Source of the DNA: an uncultured Chthonomonadaceae bacterium
Lineage (GTDB): Bacteria; Armatimonadota; Chthonomonadetes; Chthonomonadales; Chthonomonadaceae
Direction: 5' to 3'
Assembly: GCA_963835065.1 (NCBI GenBank)
Contig: CAWIEK010000048.1
Coordinates: 64,001 to 128,000 of the forward strand
DNA: 64,000 nt
The notes below the pieces were generated by a model. The model was given only the letters and a program-made list of their open reading frames with translations. It was not told the origin of the DNA and did no database searches. Positions 39,431-46,700 of this stretch are shown here, piece after piece (the stretch's first letter is position 1; the number at the start of each line of letters is the position of its first letter). Position numbers and translations under genes: made by a program.

Positions 39431-41661
39431 CTATGGCTTGCGCAGGGTTACGCCGGGCGCGACGATCCACTTGTATACGGCGCTGGTATTAAGGGGATGG
39501 ATGCTGTACGCGACATTGGGCGCGAGTTTGTTGCGGTCGGCGTCTGCAATGTGCGCCGTATACACCTGAAAATGGGTTCCGTAGTTGTTGATGCTGCCGC
39601 CGTCGAGCGTGAAGCGAACATCGGGATGGCCTGCGGCTTTCAGAACAAAATCATGGCTGGCATGTTTGTAGTAGCGCGTCATCTGGTTGCGGTTGTGCCC
39701 CTCAACCCATTCTTTAATCCCAATCAGAAAATCAACACTGCCGGGCATTTGATTGGCCGGGGGAATGTCGGACGGGTTTGTTGCCGCGCCCTTCCAGTAG
39801 ACGCCGTTGATGGTTACGGTTCGCAGTTCGGGAACGGGAACGTCGGGGTTGGCGATTTTGCTGTAGGCGCCGAAGTGATCGGAAACCGACAGTAGCGTAT
39901 AGGGATTTACCGACGTGAGTTTGGGCTGGTCCGCCGGGTAATTGGCGTAACGCCTGCCCCACGTTTCGGCAAGCGGAAGTTCGCTGATGTCCTTCACGGT
40001 GTAAATGTGCGTCAGCAGCCCGAAGTAATCCTCATCCAGAGTGTTTTGCCCCAGATTGTTATAGTTCAAGCGCGCCCAATGGTGGCCCACGTACACTTCA
40101 TTGAACAGGTGGTTGGCAAATCCGTCGTTTTCCACGCCCATGCCAGCGCCGCCCGGACGCCGTGATGGTGAATGGCCGTCAGGAACTTGTTCACCTGTGT
40201 GGAAACGTTGCCGTCAACCGGGGGAATACACACCACAATGCGCGTCGGAATGCCCAAAGCCCGGAAATTAGTCGTCAGGTACGTGGACGCGGACGTGCAG
40301 GAGCCGTGCGTTTTATTGTAAAACATGCCCTTGCCCAGCACTTCCCGCGCGAACATCTCCTCATCGGTCATGTTTTTGTCGGGTTTTTGCGCATCGAACG
40401 CGCTGCGCAGGCCGGGCGCGACGGTCGGAACGCCGTTGGGGTAGGTGACATACCAGACGCCAAACGCGGGATTGTACCGGGCGCGGCGCATCGCCCAATT
40501 CGAGACTTTCGTGACAAGTTGTTTGTCCGTGAGCGTATCGGGATCAATGCCGTCCTGCCGCAGTTGATCTAGCAAATCCGTTCGCATTTGCGCGTCCCAA
40601 TTGGCGGTAGGCGTGGGCGTCAGGTACTCGGCTGTGCCCGCGTCGTAATGTTTCCAATCGGCGTTTTCGCCAATCGCGTCCCTGTTGGTGTTGAGCGGAT
40701 AGTACGTCACTTCCAGCGTGTAAGAATCCTTGTCTTCGGCAAGAACGCGAACGTCCTGATAATCGTCGTTCATATCCGCAGGACGGCAGGGTTTCAGAAT
40801 TTTAAGCGTGGATGTAATCGTATAGGTAAACTCCCGCTTCTGAGCGCCCTGCCCGTCCGCAATCCCCTTCCCCGCCGTGTCCCTCTTGTTCGGATTGGTG
40901 ACGGCTCCCCAGGCGTAAACGCCGGGGCTTCATGTTCTCAGGTCTGCAAGGGCATTTACCACAGCCCTCTCGCTGAGGGCAGCGTCCCTGCCCTTCTTCT
41001 CACAAAGGGCCATCTTGCCCTTCTTCTATATATTCCGCGCGGCATTGCTGTCCCTGTGCAGCACAAGGCCACAGTAAGGACAACTGTGAATACGGCAAGA
41101 CAAGGCTTTGGGCACGTACTCGCCACACGCGGAACAGTTCTGACTGGTATACTGCGGCTGCACTTCTATAACCCGTCTGACGGCTCTTGCAGCCTGTGAT
41201 TTCAAGACGGAAAAGAACAGCCCCCAACCGGCATCCATAATGGCTCGTGCAAGGTGATGGTTCTTCAACATGCCCGTGATGTTGAGCTTCTCAATGTACA
41301 CGACATCGAAACGGGCAATCAGGTCAAGGACACAAGGCAGGACAACACTCGGCCTGAAAGCCGAAGTCTGAACAGGAAGTCCATTCCTCCCAATTGCTAA
41401 AGCAAGGGGCTTTCTGGACTTGCATTTGGTAAAATACTTGTGGATTTCCTGAAAATCGCTCAGGCCGTCGCCATCCGTATCCACTTCCGCGACCGGCACA
41501 GGCGCTGCCTGTTGTTTCGCGCTACGTGACGGAGCAGAGCGCGGGAACACATAGGCGGATACAGACGTGAAAACGCCTGCTCCGAACAGAAGCGTCAGGC
41601 CGACAAGTCCTCCATAAGTTCTGCGGCAAGTGGTTAAAAGTGAGTGTTTGCAAACGCGCAT
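39431..41661 (-). pseudogene. Secreted transglutaminase-like protein interrupted by an IS605-family element
   Basis: N-terminus MRVCKH...DTDGDGLSDFQEIHKYFT resumes as NPNKRDT after the insert. HGSCTS, RALGIPTR, NHLFNEVY present. Additional frameshift near 40140. Confidence 0.8.
40898..41428 (-). mobile_element. tnpB: Non-autonomous IS200/IS605-family element with truncated tnpB
   Basis: TnpB C-terminus (IEKLNI...TSQNCSACG...CPYCG...RDSNAARNI). Subterminal hairpins; right end ...CGTCAC; inserted 3' of TTAC with no target duplication. Confidence 0.9.
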
Positions 41662-43941: not shown

Positions 43942-44042
43942 ACCACGGGGAACACGGGGAACACGGGGGAGGAGAGGGAATAGAACCACTTCATCCGTAG
44001 TTCTATCTCTCCCCTTTTTCCTCCCCCGTGTTCCCCGTGGTT
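43941..44042. repeat. Palindrome of CACGGGGAA nonamers between convergent genes (possible bidirectional terminator)
   Basis: aaccacggggaacacggggaacacgggggagg pairs with cctcccccgtgttccccgtggtt. Confidence 0.85.
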
Positions 44043-44056
44043 CATACTCCTCGCTG

Positions 44057-45440
44057 TTAGGCCGCTTTGAGCAATGGCAGGGCGTCGCGTTCGCTTTTGG
44101 ATTCCGCGCAGGCCAGTCGGGAAAGCGTTTCCGGCTGGCGGGAATCGAGTGGGAAAACGGCGCTGCCGATGCCAAAGGTCAGGCGTTGCCGCGTCAGGTT
44201 CCAGCCTTTTTCCCGGAGCCAGGCTGCCATATTTTGCTCCATGCGCCGCGTCACCACGTCTACGGATTCCCCGGTAAACGGCAGTATCAGGGCGAACGTC
44301 TGCTCGTCGTAGCGCGTGAGAATGTCCACGCGGCGGACGCTGCGGCGCAGAATGTCGGATGTGCCGGTCAGCGCCTCGTCCCGCTTCAAGGTTCCCAATT
44401 GGCGCGACAGGGTTTCCAATCCGTCCAGGCGAACAAAGATAACCGACAATTCCGTACCCGTCCGGCTGGCGCGGCTCACTTCTTCCTGCAGGCGGTTGTC
44501 GTAGTAACGGCGGTTGTACAGGCGCGTCAGGTCGTCTACAATGGGCATCTGGTCCAGCTGCGCCTGCTGCATTTCCAGTCGCTGCCGCATGTGCGTTAAT
44601 TGCAGTTGCGAGGTTCGCAGTTCGTCCGCATGAAGGATGTTTTTTAGTTTTTTGGTCGCGTTGCGCAGGATGTGCGACACGTAATTGCACGAGATGCCCA
44701 TTTGCCGCGCGATTTCGGTCTGGTTCAGGTCCTTGAAATAAAAGGCATGAAGAACGTGCTGCTCCAAGCTCCTTTAATTTCAGCATCGCCGTTTCCAGCA
44801 CGATGCGGTCTTCAACCGGCAATTGGAAACTGGAAGACGGATCGACGCGCTGCTTGCGATCCATGTCTACTGTGCCGCCGTTGTCTTCCTCACTCTCCGA
44901 GCCGCCGTCAATGCTGGAAACTTTGAACACCTCGCGGGTCATCATCATTTCCGTGACCGCTTCTTCTGTCATGTCCATCATGCGCGCGATTTCCAGATGG
45001 GTAGGCGGGCGGCTTAGTTGCTGTCCGAGCGCGTCAATAGTGCGCGTCATGCGCTGGTTCAGTTCCTGCAGCCAGGCAGGCTCCTTGATGATTTTGCCCC
45101 GGTCACGCAAACAATGCTTGATCTGGCCGATGATAAAGTGCGTGGCGTAAGTGGAAAATTTAACTTGTTTGGCCGGATCGTATAAGTCAATGGCGGTCAG
45201 CAGGCCGATATACCCTTCCTGCGCCAGGTCCTCCACCGGCTCGGAAGCGGCGGCAAAGCGCCGGGCGATGCTTTCAACCAGATTGGCGTATTGCGCGACA
45301 AGTTGTTCCCGCGCTTTTTCGTCGCGGCTCTGACGATAACGTTGAAGCAGGATTGCCGTATTCTCCTCTTGACGCTTGCGCGCTACGGCAGCCTCGGTTG
45401 TCGTCATGTCCCGCGTCTGAGTTCTATTTCCTATCGGCAT
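44057..45440 (-). CDS. SigB/SigF-type sigma70 factor fused to a degenerate GGDEF domain (one +1 indel near 44767)
   Basis: Region 2 EDLAQEGYIGLLTAIDLYDP...FSTYATHFIIGQIKHCLRD; region 3 LSRPPTHLEIA; region 4 LNQTEIARQMGISCNYVSHIL, in the same frame as DDLTRLYNRRY...RRVDILTRYDEQTFALILP. Confidence 0.9.
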
Positions 45441-45944
45441 TGCTCCCCGGTGGACGCGCGCCTTCGTTCCCATCGTACGCGACGCAGTCCTGACGTTTCC
45501 GTCCTATCCTTAGGTGTCTTCGCCGTTTCCTCCGTGCTTGCGAAGACGAAAGGATTATTGCCAGAAGCATGGGAACGGCTAGAGACCTGCCGACATATTC
45601 GCGCAAAAAACAGAGCCGCAAGTTGAGGAGTATTTTGCCCCAACACTCAATTTTTCCTGTAAAATGAGGGAACGTCCGATCAAGTAAGGCGGGCTGATTA
45701 AGCTATTCAAAGGTTTTGCCCCGTATTGCCTACATGAACCTACGCCTACTGCCTGATTTATGCTGGTAAAATGAGTTGGCCATACGCGCAAATGCAAGTA
45801 TCAATTTGTTTTTGTTTGGTGTACTGATGCAGCGGCGCAATTTCCGCCAGGTTTGTTTAGCAGGGTTCTCCCCGGCGTTAGAGGTTTCTCCAAACCCGCG
45901 CCGCGCCCTGCGCGCCGTTTGTGCAGAAAGGAGTTCGTAACAAC

Positions 45945-46700
45945 GTGAATTTGCTTTTCACGCAGGTAGTTTCCGGCCTGGGCTGGATACTGTACGGCAG
46001 TTTCTTTGAGTGGTACTGGCATAAATACTTTATGCACCAGCCGCGCTTCCCCATGCAAGCCTTCAAGGGGCATACCATCGTCCATCACGGGCTGTACAAG
46101 GGCGAAGAGGAATACTTTTGCCGCGAAGACCGTCACCCGGAACACATCCTGCTCAAGCCCTACGCCCTCCCCGGCCTGATCGCCACGCACATTCCCCTGA
46201 TGCTGCTCATCGAGCATTTTGTGCCCCACACGTTCATCGGCGCGTTTGTGGCGACCCTGGGTTACTTTGTCGTTTATGAGTACCTGCACTGGAACATGCA
46301 CGTGCCGCGCAACCATTTCGTGGAGCGCTTCGGCTGGTTCCAGTTCCTGCGCAACCACCACAAACTGCACCACACGCATTACCAGAAGAATTTTTGCGTA
46401 CTGTTCCCGCTGGCCGATTATGTGATGGGCACGATGGTCACGGAAGCGAGTTTGGCCCGCGCCAAAGCCGAGCGCGAAGCCGCCATTGCCAGCGGCAGCG
46501 TCCGAACGGAGCGCAAAACGCGCAAGGGCCGCCGCGTTCGCGCGATGCCCGGACTGCGGCAGGCGCAGGAATCCAAACTGGCGCGCGAGTTCTTCAAATT
46601 CAAAACGCGGCGTGTCCGCGCAGGCCGCACCCGTCGGCGCGTCGGTGATCTCAACGATTTGCGCGAAATGCTGCACATTGGCAAGAAGCCCCGCCGCTAA
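45945..46700 (+). CDS. Fatty acid hydroxylase/sterol desaturase family membrane protein
   Basis: His boxes HKYFMH, HTIVHH, HWNMH, HHKLHH. Confidence 0.88.
   Translation: MNLLFTQVVSGLGWILYGSFFEWYWHKYFMHQPRFPMQAFKGHTIVHHGLYKGEEEYFCREDRHPEHILLKPYALPGLIATHIPLMLLIEHFVPHTFIGAFVATLGYFVVYEYLHWNMHVPRNHFVERFGWFQFLRNHHKLHHTHYQKNFCVLFPLADYVMGTMVTEASLARAKAEREAAIASGSVRTERKTRKGRRVRAMPGLRQAQESKLAREFFKFKTRRVRAGRTRRRVGDLNDLREMLHIGKKPRR

Follow-up and report, generated by a model that had tools for sequence, protein, structure and literature searches.

The sigma-GGDEF gene and the parts of its product

The window analysed here (a stretch of 64,000 nucleotides of DNA from an uncultured Chthonomonadaceae bacterium, to which all positions refer) contains a gene for a sigma factor fused to a degenerate GGDEF domain (44057..45440, minus strand, as are all features of the gene described below). 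It starts with an ATG at 45440, ends with a stop at 44057 and is split over two frames by a single extra base (44766..44768), which the initial annotation had correctly placed inside the sigma part. Read through this base, the product comprises 460 residues and is identical at 406 of 413 residues to an intact homolog of 449 residues, P0004 (98% identical to the window product), whose residue numbering is used throughout. A Pfam search assigns Sigma70_r2 and Sigma70_r3 to the 5' frame, and Sigma70_r4 together with GGDEF to the 3' frame; region 4 and the GGDEF domain are thus read in one frame and the fusion is independent of the indel, as had been suggested. The gene is neighboured by a convergent HEAT-repeat gene and a divergent fatty-acid hydroxylase gene, and no anti-sigma gene is adjacent to it, in agreement with the earlier observation.

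The extra base was compared with contigs of eight sequencing runs. Those of four runs from three studies (X1, X2, X3 and X5) cross positions 44766–44768 and have one base fewer there, the remaining four runs being without coverage at this place. Relative to the gene from the same genus (L061), it is the sole uncompensated indel. An open frame of 440–548 residues covers the match in 43 of 60 related genomes, and one more frame ends at a contig edge. The extra base is probably an assembly error; the frameshift is likely to be either such an error or a very recent mutation and to have no bearing on the fusion family. It is rather unlikely that the base is real and that the copy of this strain, and of this strain only, is a fresh pseudogene. 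Such a reading would fit the position of the base outside any homopolymer run, the lack of a demonstrated origin of the compared contigs in the source sample and the loss of the gene from whole genera, but decay is otherwise absent from the copy, as its residue identity with P0004 demonstrates, its promoter and leader are intact, and a screen of 52 genes of the assembly returned two further two-frame matches (one of them in an antisense frame and unclear). The decaying pseudogene that the initial annotation had kept in mind is likewise at variance with the intact genes of the relatives and the intact 98%-identical protein. Programmed frameshifting was rejected: the relatives have the gene in frame, and three other records of the C-terminal part only begin at differing places.

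The sigma part, which belongs to a group 3 sigma factor, is formed by region 2 (45093..45302; PF04542, E 1e-17), region 3 (44865..45065; PF04539, E 3.7e-8) and the region 4 helix-turn-helix (44642..44789, with an approximate start as it spans the frameshift; PF04545, E 1.4e-8). The description of a complete SigB/SigF-like sigma factor given earlier therefore stands as to the three regions; the family assignment has to be loosened, the protein being divergent and lying under every listed named-subfamily cut-off. The best NCBIfam match of P0004 is TIGR02980 (SigB/F/G; 180.7 bits against a cut-off of 234.35), the second-best is cyanobacterial SigF (PRK07408; 161.6 bits against 261), and FliA/WhiG (TIGR02479) reaches 116 against 189.6. 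Fusion sigmas score 180.7, 184.1 and 180.3 on TIGR02980, compared to 293.2 for a stand-alone paralogue. In a tree of 62 rows the fused sigmas are found on the SigB/F side, apart from the two FliA/WhiG proteins of this genome, and do not form one clade: a GGDEF-less sigma of family f32 is nested among them (98/97). A flagellar sigma factor proper was rejected by the TIGR02479 score, by the tree and by the 7 of 33 fusion-bearing genomes that have no flagellin. The key columns of regions 2 and 4 are kept in 60–69 of 69 aligned sequences, and this strong conservation suggests that the sigma part is likely to function as a sigma factor. The recognition helix is also conserved and reads ISCNYVSHILR, or ISVNYASYLLR in some families; in stand-alone paralogues it is of the ISQMHVSRL type. 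An anti-sigma protein of the RsbW type (PF13581) is absent from two of the three fusion-bearing genomes searched, one of which consists of a single contig and is 99% complete, and was found in one of the two fusion-lacking genomes searched; in the present genome the PF13581 match is an unlinked frame of 187 residues.

The linker (44537..44632) is predicted to be helical, continuous with the region 4 recognition helix and terminated at the DxLT turn. In the AlphaFold model of P0004 (mean pLDDT 86.7, pTM 0.47) the sigma domains are separate and one helix (residues 240–285) runs from the recognition helix to just before DxLT. The structure prediction proposed in the initial annotation thus yielded the sigma domains and the long helix; with a pTM of 0.47 the arrangement of the domains is not resolved. 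A fold search with this model gave chains of sigmaB and sigmaA holoenzymes as well as PleD, WspR and a T. maritima GGDEF protein, each match being partial; the closest solved sigma chains are 1L0O_C and 8X6G_H. The linker is 45–46 residues long in 46 of 69 fusions, and its overall range of 29–62 residues argues against one rigid coupling everywhere.

Degeneration of the GGDEF domain and retention of the I-site

The GGDEF domain (44111..44539; PF00990, E 3.6e-24) matches WspR, PleD and other solved cyclases. All sequence features reported for it initially (the linker, DDLTRLYNRR, VRLDG, RRVD and RYDEQTF) are present in the translation, and RRVD is separated from the motif position by ILTRY, which is indeed the five-residue spacing. 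The position of the GG(D/E)EF motif is occupied by DEQTF (44294..44308). Among 69 aligned fusion sequences (31–86% identity) the motif occurs in none, and the metal and substrate columns are variable; the features of an active cyclase (GG(D/E)EF, metal-binding Asp, Lys and Asn) are thus not found in the fusion GGDEF domain. The control set consisted of 55 further GGDEF domains from the phylum (40 spread along the list of genome GGDEF matches and 15 of this genome), and in the 46 active ones the catalytic-type columns are kept in 40–46.

The primary I-site is formed by the RxxD motif (R358 and D361; 44324..44335) and by R388 (44243..44245; the position of PleD R390 and DgcR R237), and the secondary positions are R312 and R315 (44462..44473). 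In the alignment of 69 sequences R358, D361 and R388 are the only invariant columns of the GGDEF domain. Among 119 close homologs R358 and D361 are kept in all 119, R388 and R315 in 118 and R312 in 117. An independent set of 73 deep representatives (fused representatives of 50% clusters) has D361 in 71, R388 in 68, R358 in 67 and R312 in 66, all among the six best-conserved columns, and R315 in 52; R358, D361 and R388 occur together in 64 of the 73, and together with R312 in 59. The corresponding numbers for the 46 active cyclases of the phylum are 30 and 16, and there the catalytic columns come ahead of the I-site columns, whose ranks are 18th to 73rd. RxxD alone is common in active cyclases (R358 in 36 and D361 in 41 of 46), yet here it is kept amid catalytic decay, and its retention is therefore specific. 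Structural columns of the fusion domain vary more than the I-site (P376 in 61, T378 in 57 and D291 in 56 of 73).

The RRVD motif aligns on the RKSD motif of DgcR, for which two other DgcR chains have AKSA. Counted by offset from DxLT, DgcR R206 and D209 fall on R358 and D361, DgcR R163 falls on R315 and PleD R390 on R388; R312 presumably takes the position of PleD R313. In the accessible part of the DgcR study (bioRxiv 10.1101/2020.08.28.271692) R206A/D209A is the I-site mutant, a c-di-GMP dimer forms a cross-link between R206xxD209 of one protomer and R163 in its partner, PleD uses R390 and R313, the secondary I-site arginines act across two protomers in both proteins, and the helix preceding DxLT is a coiled coil in DgcR. 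Since the arginines acting across chains are kept and the helix before DxLT is a coiled coil in DgcR, the fusion protein may reasonably be expected to form a dimer, and its cross-linking geometry is likely to be that of the product-inhibited dimers of DgcR, PleD and WspR.

The domain has the fold, the motif loss, the RxxD at five-residue spacing and the supporting arginines of a degenerate receptor, and it very probably binds c-di-GMP. The proposal of the initial annotation, a one-component c-di-GMP-sensing sigma factor, is supported as a prediction from the sequences. The further I-site arginines, and the C-terminal AA, the upstream promoter and hairpin and the association with pili described below, are additions to it.

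Distribution, genomic context and candidate promoters

Within the phylum Armatimonadota the fusion is widely distributed. Regions 2, 3 and 4 together with GGDEF are present in 109 of the 120 homologs listed (Pfam); the expectation that homologs would carry the fusion and keep RxxD while losing the catalytic motif is borne out (R358 and D361 in 69/69, GG(D/E)EF in 0/69). The names of the homolog records (best 80 of 402) are Chthonomonadaceae, Chthonomonadales, Capsulimonadales, Armatimonadota or simply "bacterium"; a record named Chthonomonas calidirosea carries the fusion (L320). Armatimonadota is the taxon in which the three top-ranking ESM Atlas clusters occur most often, and no name outside this phylum was seen among the ten clusters looked up, nine of which have no taxon. 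An alignment profile gave one match each in 31 of 46 genomes of the class that are at least 90% complete. In the whole phylum, with five candidates scored per genome, 226 of the 301 genomes have a match at E 1e-40, an overcount since about 19 of them are probably sigma-only: families f32 (16 genomes) and f4 (3 genomes) were matched through sigma-only proteins, as judged from one genome checked of each family. The related sigma of f32 has no GGDEF domain. A recheck of ten GGDEF-rich genomes scored as absent revealed fragments of the fusion in one (G140, dropped from the count). Full-length fusions were cut from 43 genomes in 22 families, so that at least 22 Armatimonadota families have it.

The fusion co-occurs with large GGDEF repertoires. 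The 72 genomes with the fusion (picked from the 226 to cover families, several being assigned by the E 1e-40 match plus family) have a median of 9 other GGDEF matches and a minimum of 3, only 4 of them having three or fewer, against a median of 1 in 74 genomes without the fusion, 64 of which have three or fewer. As the genomes are kin, these counts are not independent and kinship would inflate any test, for which reason none is given. The contrast is also seen within families f1, f3, f11, f16, f20, f23 and f27, with exceptions. Three of three f32 genomes, with their GGDEF-less sigma, have just 2 GGDEF matches. Nine fusion-lacking genomes still have 6–14 matches; two of the nine (G049 and G179) consist of hundreds of contigs and have congeners with the fusion.

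Outside the order to which the window belongs, 22 of 28 fusion loci have pilC as the immediate upstream neighbour on the same strand, frequently in the layout secretin-pilB-pilT-pilC-sigma, and one further locus follows a pilM-pilN-secretin run. Within the order pilC is beside the fusion gene in none of 12 loci. The linked pilC paralogue (at least 55% identical) is found outside the order in 19 of 21 fusion-bearing versus 2 of 35 fusion-lacking genomes, five more genomes having it at 49–54% identity; inside the order it was not seen, with or without the fusion. The co-loss of fusion and pilC can stem from adjacency alone. Generic PilC was tried as a profile marker and proved uninformative, being present in 80 of 80 genomes. 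MshEN domains (Pfam) are present in the PilB proteins that the linked clusters encode. Flagellin accompanies the fusion inside the order (12/12 with versus 1/12 without) and over 80 genomes (26/33 fusion-bearing versus 12/47 fusion-lacking).

Upstream of the fusion gene lies a sigma28-type promoter-like element (45554..45584) with a -10 box GGCAATAAT at 45562–45554 and a -35 box CTCTAG at 45584–45579. Of 34 upstream regions, 25 have the -10 box without mismatch and 31 have it with at most one; some 15 nt ahead of it stand bases resembling CT(A)AAG. The same layout precedes flagellin genes, many of the 30 loci having a -10 box similar to GCCGATAA, and TAAA / GCCGATAA is given as the sigma28 consensus in the available text of PMC8325347. 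A matrix scan of this genome for the promoter yielded 60 hits versus 33 in the control, fliD and flgM included, and two frames of the genome are FliA/WhiG-like. Of 17 sigma28-type sites in 40 loci, 15 lie within 500 bases before a sigma, pilB, pilC or pilin gene, versus 7 control hits in all, a comparison which is partly circular. The GGCAATAAT pattern does not separate fusion-bearing from fusion-lacking genomes, and a looser sigma28 pattern is found in 15 of 28 genomes lacking the fusion. Autoregulation, with GGCAATAAT as the own promoter of the fusion sigma, is not supported, given that genomes show the pattern whether or not they carry the fusion and that fliD and flgM share the layout. The fusion gene is fairly probably transcribed by a FliA/WhiG-type sigma and would hence stand on the second tier of sigma factors in the motility programme.

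Another motif, CTCANA-N14/15-TGGAATAA, was matched 10 times in four of five genomes and never in the reversed control, and in these four genomes it precedes the pilin gene behind the sigma gene. It was not found in the fifth genome, and the comparison has no fusion-lacking kin to serve as a control. The other genes behind it encode a 485-residue protein of unknown function (two cases), a GAF-GGDEF protein, a kinase, an ExbB-like protein and a G5/3D protein. This candidate motif differs from the SigB-type -10 GGGTAT. Genome G228 (one contig, 97%) has it without flagellin and without a FliA/WhiG protein over the cut-off, and the fusion sigma would therefore be the simplest reader of the candidate pilin motif there, ECF sigmas being other possible readers. 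Pilin and pilus genes as targets of the fusion sigma appear somewhat probable.

Between promoter and start codon a hairpin is predicted beside the ribosome-binding site (45446..45496, core 45462–45480). Its core, located about 40 nt before the start, is found with no more than 5 mismatches in 21 of the 33 relatives. In an alignment of 20 sequences (19 of these 21 relatives plus the window, the structure being drawn from the same related sequences) a nine-pair hairpin is 83.9% paired and 7 pairs change on both sides, a score reached by 0 of 500 shuffles, with slid controls at 44% or less. Taken alone, the window copy folds no better than its shuffles (z 0.08), the others giving z of -0.95 to -3.28. 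The region 45400–45950 has no match in Rfam 15 up to E 5. A dispersed regulon element was rejected: 14 of 24 matches are at the fusion gene and the other 10 in coding sequence.

At the other end of the gene the product terminates in Ala-Ala (44060..44065), a candidate ClpXP tag, as C-terminal AA is a ClpXP degron. All 119 close homologs have it, as do 52 of 69 aligned fusions and 19 of 73 deep representatives, against a background of 72 of 4307 long frames of the genome (1.7%). Of the other GGDEF frames of this genome, 8 of 15 also end in AA.

Possible mode of action and comparison with known systems

That the ligand controls either the activity or the amount of the fusion sigma is quite probable. 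In the mechanism we propose, FliA/WhiG would transcribe the sigma-GGDEF gene and c-di-GMP would occupy the I-site, cross-linking two sigma-GGDEF chains. The locked dimer would have both region 4 domains on one stalk and keep them from the polymerase; upon a drop of c-di-GMP the fusion sigma would transcribe pilin and related genes. There is about an even chance that c-di-GMP at the I-site holds the sigma off RNA polymerase in this manner, with pilus and surface-motility targets on at low c-di-GMP. Every step of this mechanism is one that we infer, and the sign of the c-di-GMP effect is the weakest; by analogy with the systems discussed below, off at high c-di-GMP is slightly favoured over on.

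It is possible, though unlikely, that the same receptor acts with the opposite sign, c-di-GMP releasing or assembling the active sigma so that a surface-contact rise turns on pilus and attachment genes in cells loaded during the motile phase. The I-site conservation fits this equally well, motile cells would be stocked with the protein in advance by a sigma28-type promoter, and the MshEN domain of the linked PilB recalls the Vibrio pilus extension ATPase MshE, which is c-di-GMP-regulated according to the available text of PMC8325347. The same text reports RsiG-WhiG and Myxococcus pilA to be repressed at high c-di-GMP, and I-site cross-linking immobilises the domains in DgcR and PleD in the accessible part of bioRxiv 10.1101/2020.08.28.271692; both speak for the off sign. 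A control resembling that of PopA, in which c-di-GMP would expose the C-terminal AA or recruit an adaptor for removal by ClpXP, or would tether the protein at the pilus pole with its intrinsic sigma activity unchanged, is quite improbable. It would account for the tag being invariant in the close homologs at such a low background, and PopA connects c-di-GMP to ClpXP in the portion of PMC12564702 at hand. However, AA is present in 19 of the 73 deep representatives versus all four I-site residues in 59, and the tag therefore seems to have been added as a further layer in some lineages.

A domain that binds no nucleotide and serves as a dimerisation or protein-docking module, with Arg and Asp kept for structure or for a partner, would agree with the I-site positions being common in ordinary GGDEF domains. 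The greater variation of P376, T378 and D291 and the association of the fusion with large GGDEF repertoires make this highly improbable. Least of all do we expect another cyclic dinucleotide such as 3'3'-cGAMP as the ligand. Among solved GGDEF structures the top score is that of the Geobacter chain 6D9M, a cGAMP-making enzyme; this match reflects general similarity, and the described I-site receptors bind c-di-GMP.

Taken together, it is somewhat likelier to be right than wrong that this phylum-wide sigma is gated by c-di-GMP through its own fused receptor and without an anti-sigma, cross-linked chains deciding on the reading of pilus promoters, one tier below FliA/WhiG, and that the structured leader RNA and the C-terminal protease tag are extra controls in Chthonomonadales. 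The nearest counterpart is RsiG-(c-di-GMP)-WhiG of Streptomyces and Rubrobacter, in which c-di-GMP likewise acts on a group 3 sigma. There the ligand is bound jointly by the sigma and an anti-sigma that is a protein of its own, whereas in the fusion the predicted GGDEF receptor belongs to the same chain, and WhiG is a sigma of the flagellar clade in contrast to the fusion sigma on the SigB/F side. In a paper from 2021 RsiG-WhiG is described as the sole sigma/anti-sigma pair known to be a target of c-di-GMP (PMC8325347, available text), and the predicted targets of the Rubrobacter pair include type IV pilus and DGC/PDE genes (PMC8325347, PMC12871210, available text). PopA and PelD resemble the fusion in having lost the catalytic motif and kept RxxD; their outputs as given in the accessible parts of PMC10333796 and PMC12564702 are proteolysis and polysaccharide synthesis, and neither is a sigma factor. 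DgcR, PleD and WspR share the helix leading into DxLT and the primary I-site with a secondary arginine, but in the available text of bioRxiv 10.1101/2020.08.28.271692 they are active cyclases with Rec input domains, while the N-terminal domain of the fusion is the output. Cyanobacterial SigF is also a SigB-related group 3 sigma and transcribes the major pilin gene (pilA1); it differs in its promoter (TAGGC / GGTAA) and in that no fused sensor is described in the accessible part of PMC2758279. SigB, SigF and SigG with RsbW/SpoIIAB correspond to the best family match, TIGR02980, but the fusion sigma lies under its cut-off, has another region 4 helix and is without a linked anti-sigma kinase. In ECF sigma factors with C-terminal extensions, which are group 4 sigmas, a regulatory domain behind region 4 replaces the anti-sigma; to our knowledge there is no second-messenger receptor among them.

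The sigma-GGDEF architecture is visible in automatic annotation. The initial annotation knew of no characterised example, and in agreement with this a search of full-text literature returned no title or abstract describing a sigma-GGDEF fusion; supplements and most subscription journals are outside its scope, so that a mention in a domain-architecture table could escape it. The word "GGDEF" does not occur in the accessible text of PMC4072686. The fusion is real and conserved and seems not to have been described before, both of its parts being of known kinds and their wiring in one chain not.

If the proposed reading is true, a sigma factor with its own receptor would connect RNA polymerase to a second messenger in a new way, and pilus control would have been solved convergently. 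One protein, defined point mutants and the candidate promoters would suffice to test the idea, and the fusion may find use as a one-gene reporter of c-di-GMP. For the Armatimonadota, a poorly studied phylum, it offers a lead into motility and attachment.

Leader hairpin and neighbourhood of the sigma gene

The ribosome-binding site of the sigma-GGDEF fusion gene is adjoined by a leader hairpin (window 45446-45496, minus strand), which is conserved, with invariant loop bases and a covarying stem, and is restricted to this fusion gene. The Rfam search with the hairpin gave no match. The element is a candidate for a small riboswitch or a protein-binding site. Between the sigma gene and the convergent HEAT-repeat gene lies a repetitive purine/pyrimidine-rich spacer with inverted copies (window 43943-44045). 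It accumulates reads from unrelated places and is therefore likely a dispersed repeat or a two-way terminator. The end of a frame at about 41026-41500 of the window (minus strand) resembles by eye a TnpB-like zinc-ribbon protein of the IS200/IS605 type, and L113:15801-16088 contains a similar piece.

Several stretches are apparently duplicated across separate contigs of the window's own genome (C26/C55, C32/C63 and C16/C17); the identical hits on these contigs suggest that the assembly is redundant there. The listed homolog P0090, on a contig of 1.2 kb, carries the C-terminal half of the sigma-GGDEF family joined to an unrelated membrane-type N-terminus and is probably a chimeric assembly.

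Pilins and the pilin-type promoter motif

Tandem near-identical short pilin genes of the window's own genome (contig C53, L111:10527-11555, minus strand) are located after pilB-pilC in a cluster also containing pilM and a secretin, and a third pilin resembling this pair is found on contig C2. Dozens of prepilin-motif frames of ~250-300 aa, with a common N-terminal stretch, are spread over many contigs of the same genome. An expansion of prepilin-motif genes of this sort is noted for Fimbriimonas in PMC4072686.

The promoter motif found in front of the pilin behind the sigma gene is common to two related ~485-aa proteins of family f22 (L118:1573-3027 and L123:1579-3027, both plus strand), neither of which has a Pfam match. 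In another genome (G195) nine sites (L207) match a promoter pattern with 30 bases that are identical at all nine, and these likely represent the end of a mobile element.

Probable sensor loss and other GGDEF proteins

A sigma factor of family f32 related to the fusion sigma is devoid of the GGDEF domain (L034:1498-2313, plus strand). Since it is nested among fused sigmas and the f32 genomes have only 2 GGDEF matches each, the sensor has likely been lost secondarily.

A second degenerate GGDEF protein with the RxxD motif present (RTHD) is encoded on contig C9 of the window's own genome (L117:2687-3316, minus strand); its gene is preceded by a sigma28-type site and directly followed by an HD_5 domain gene. 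At L187, a membrane protein with a GAF domain carries a dead GGDEF domain that retains all four I-site residues (R358, D361, R388 and R312 in P0004 numbering), and L188 and L189 encode two related CBS-like-GGDEF proteins. A C-terminal Ala-Ala is present in 8 of the 15 other GGDEF frames of the window's own genome (L111-L117), as compared to a background of 1.7%. It is possible that these ends serve as a protease tag common to the c-di-GMP network.
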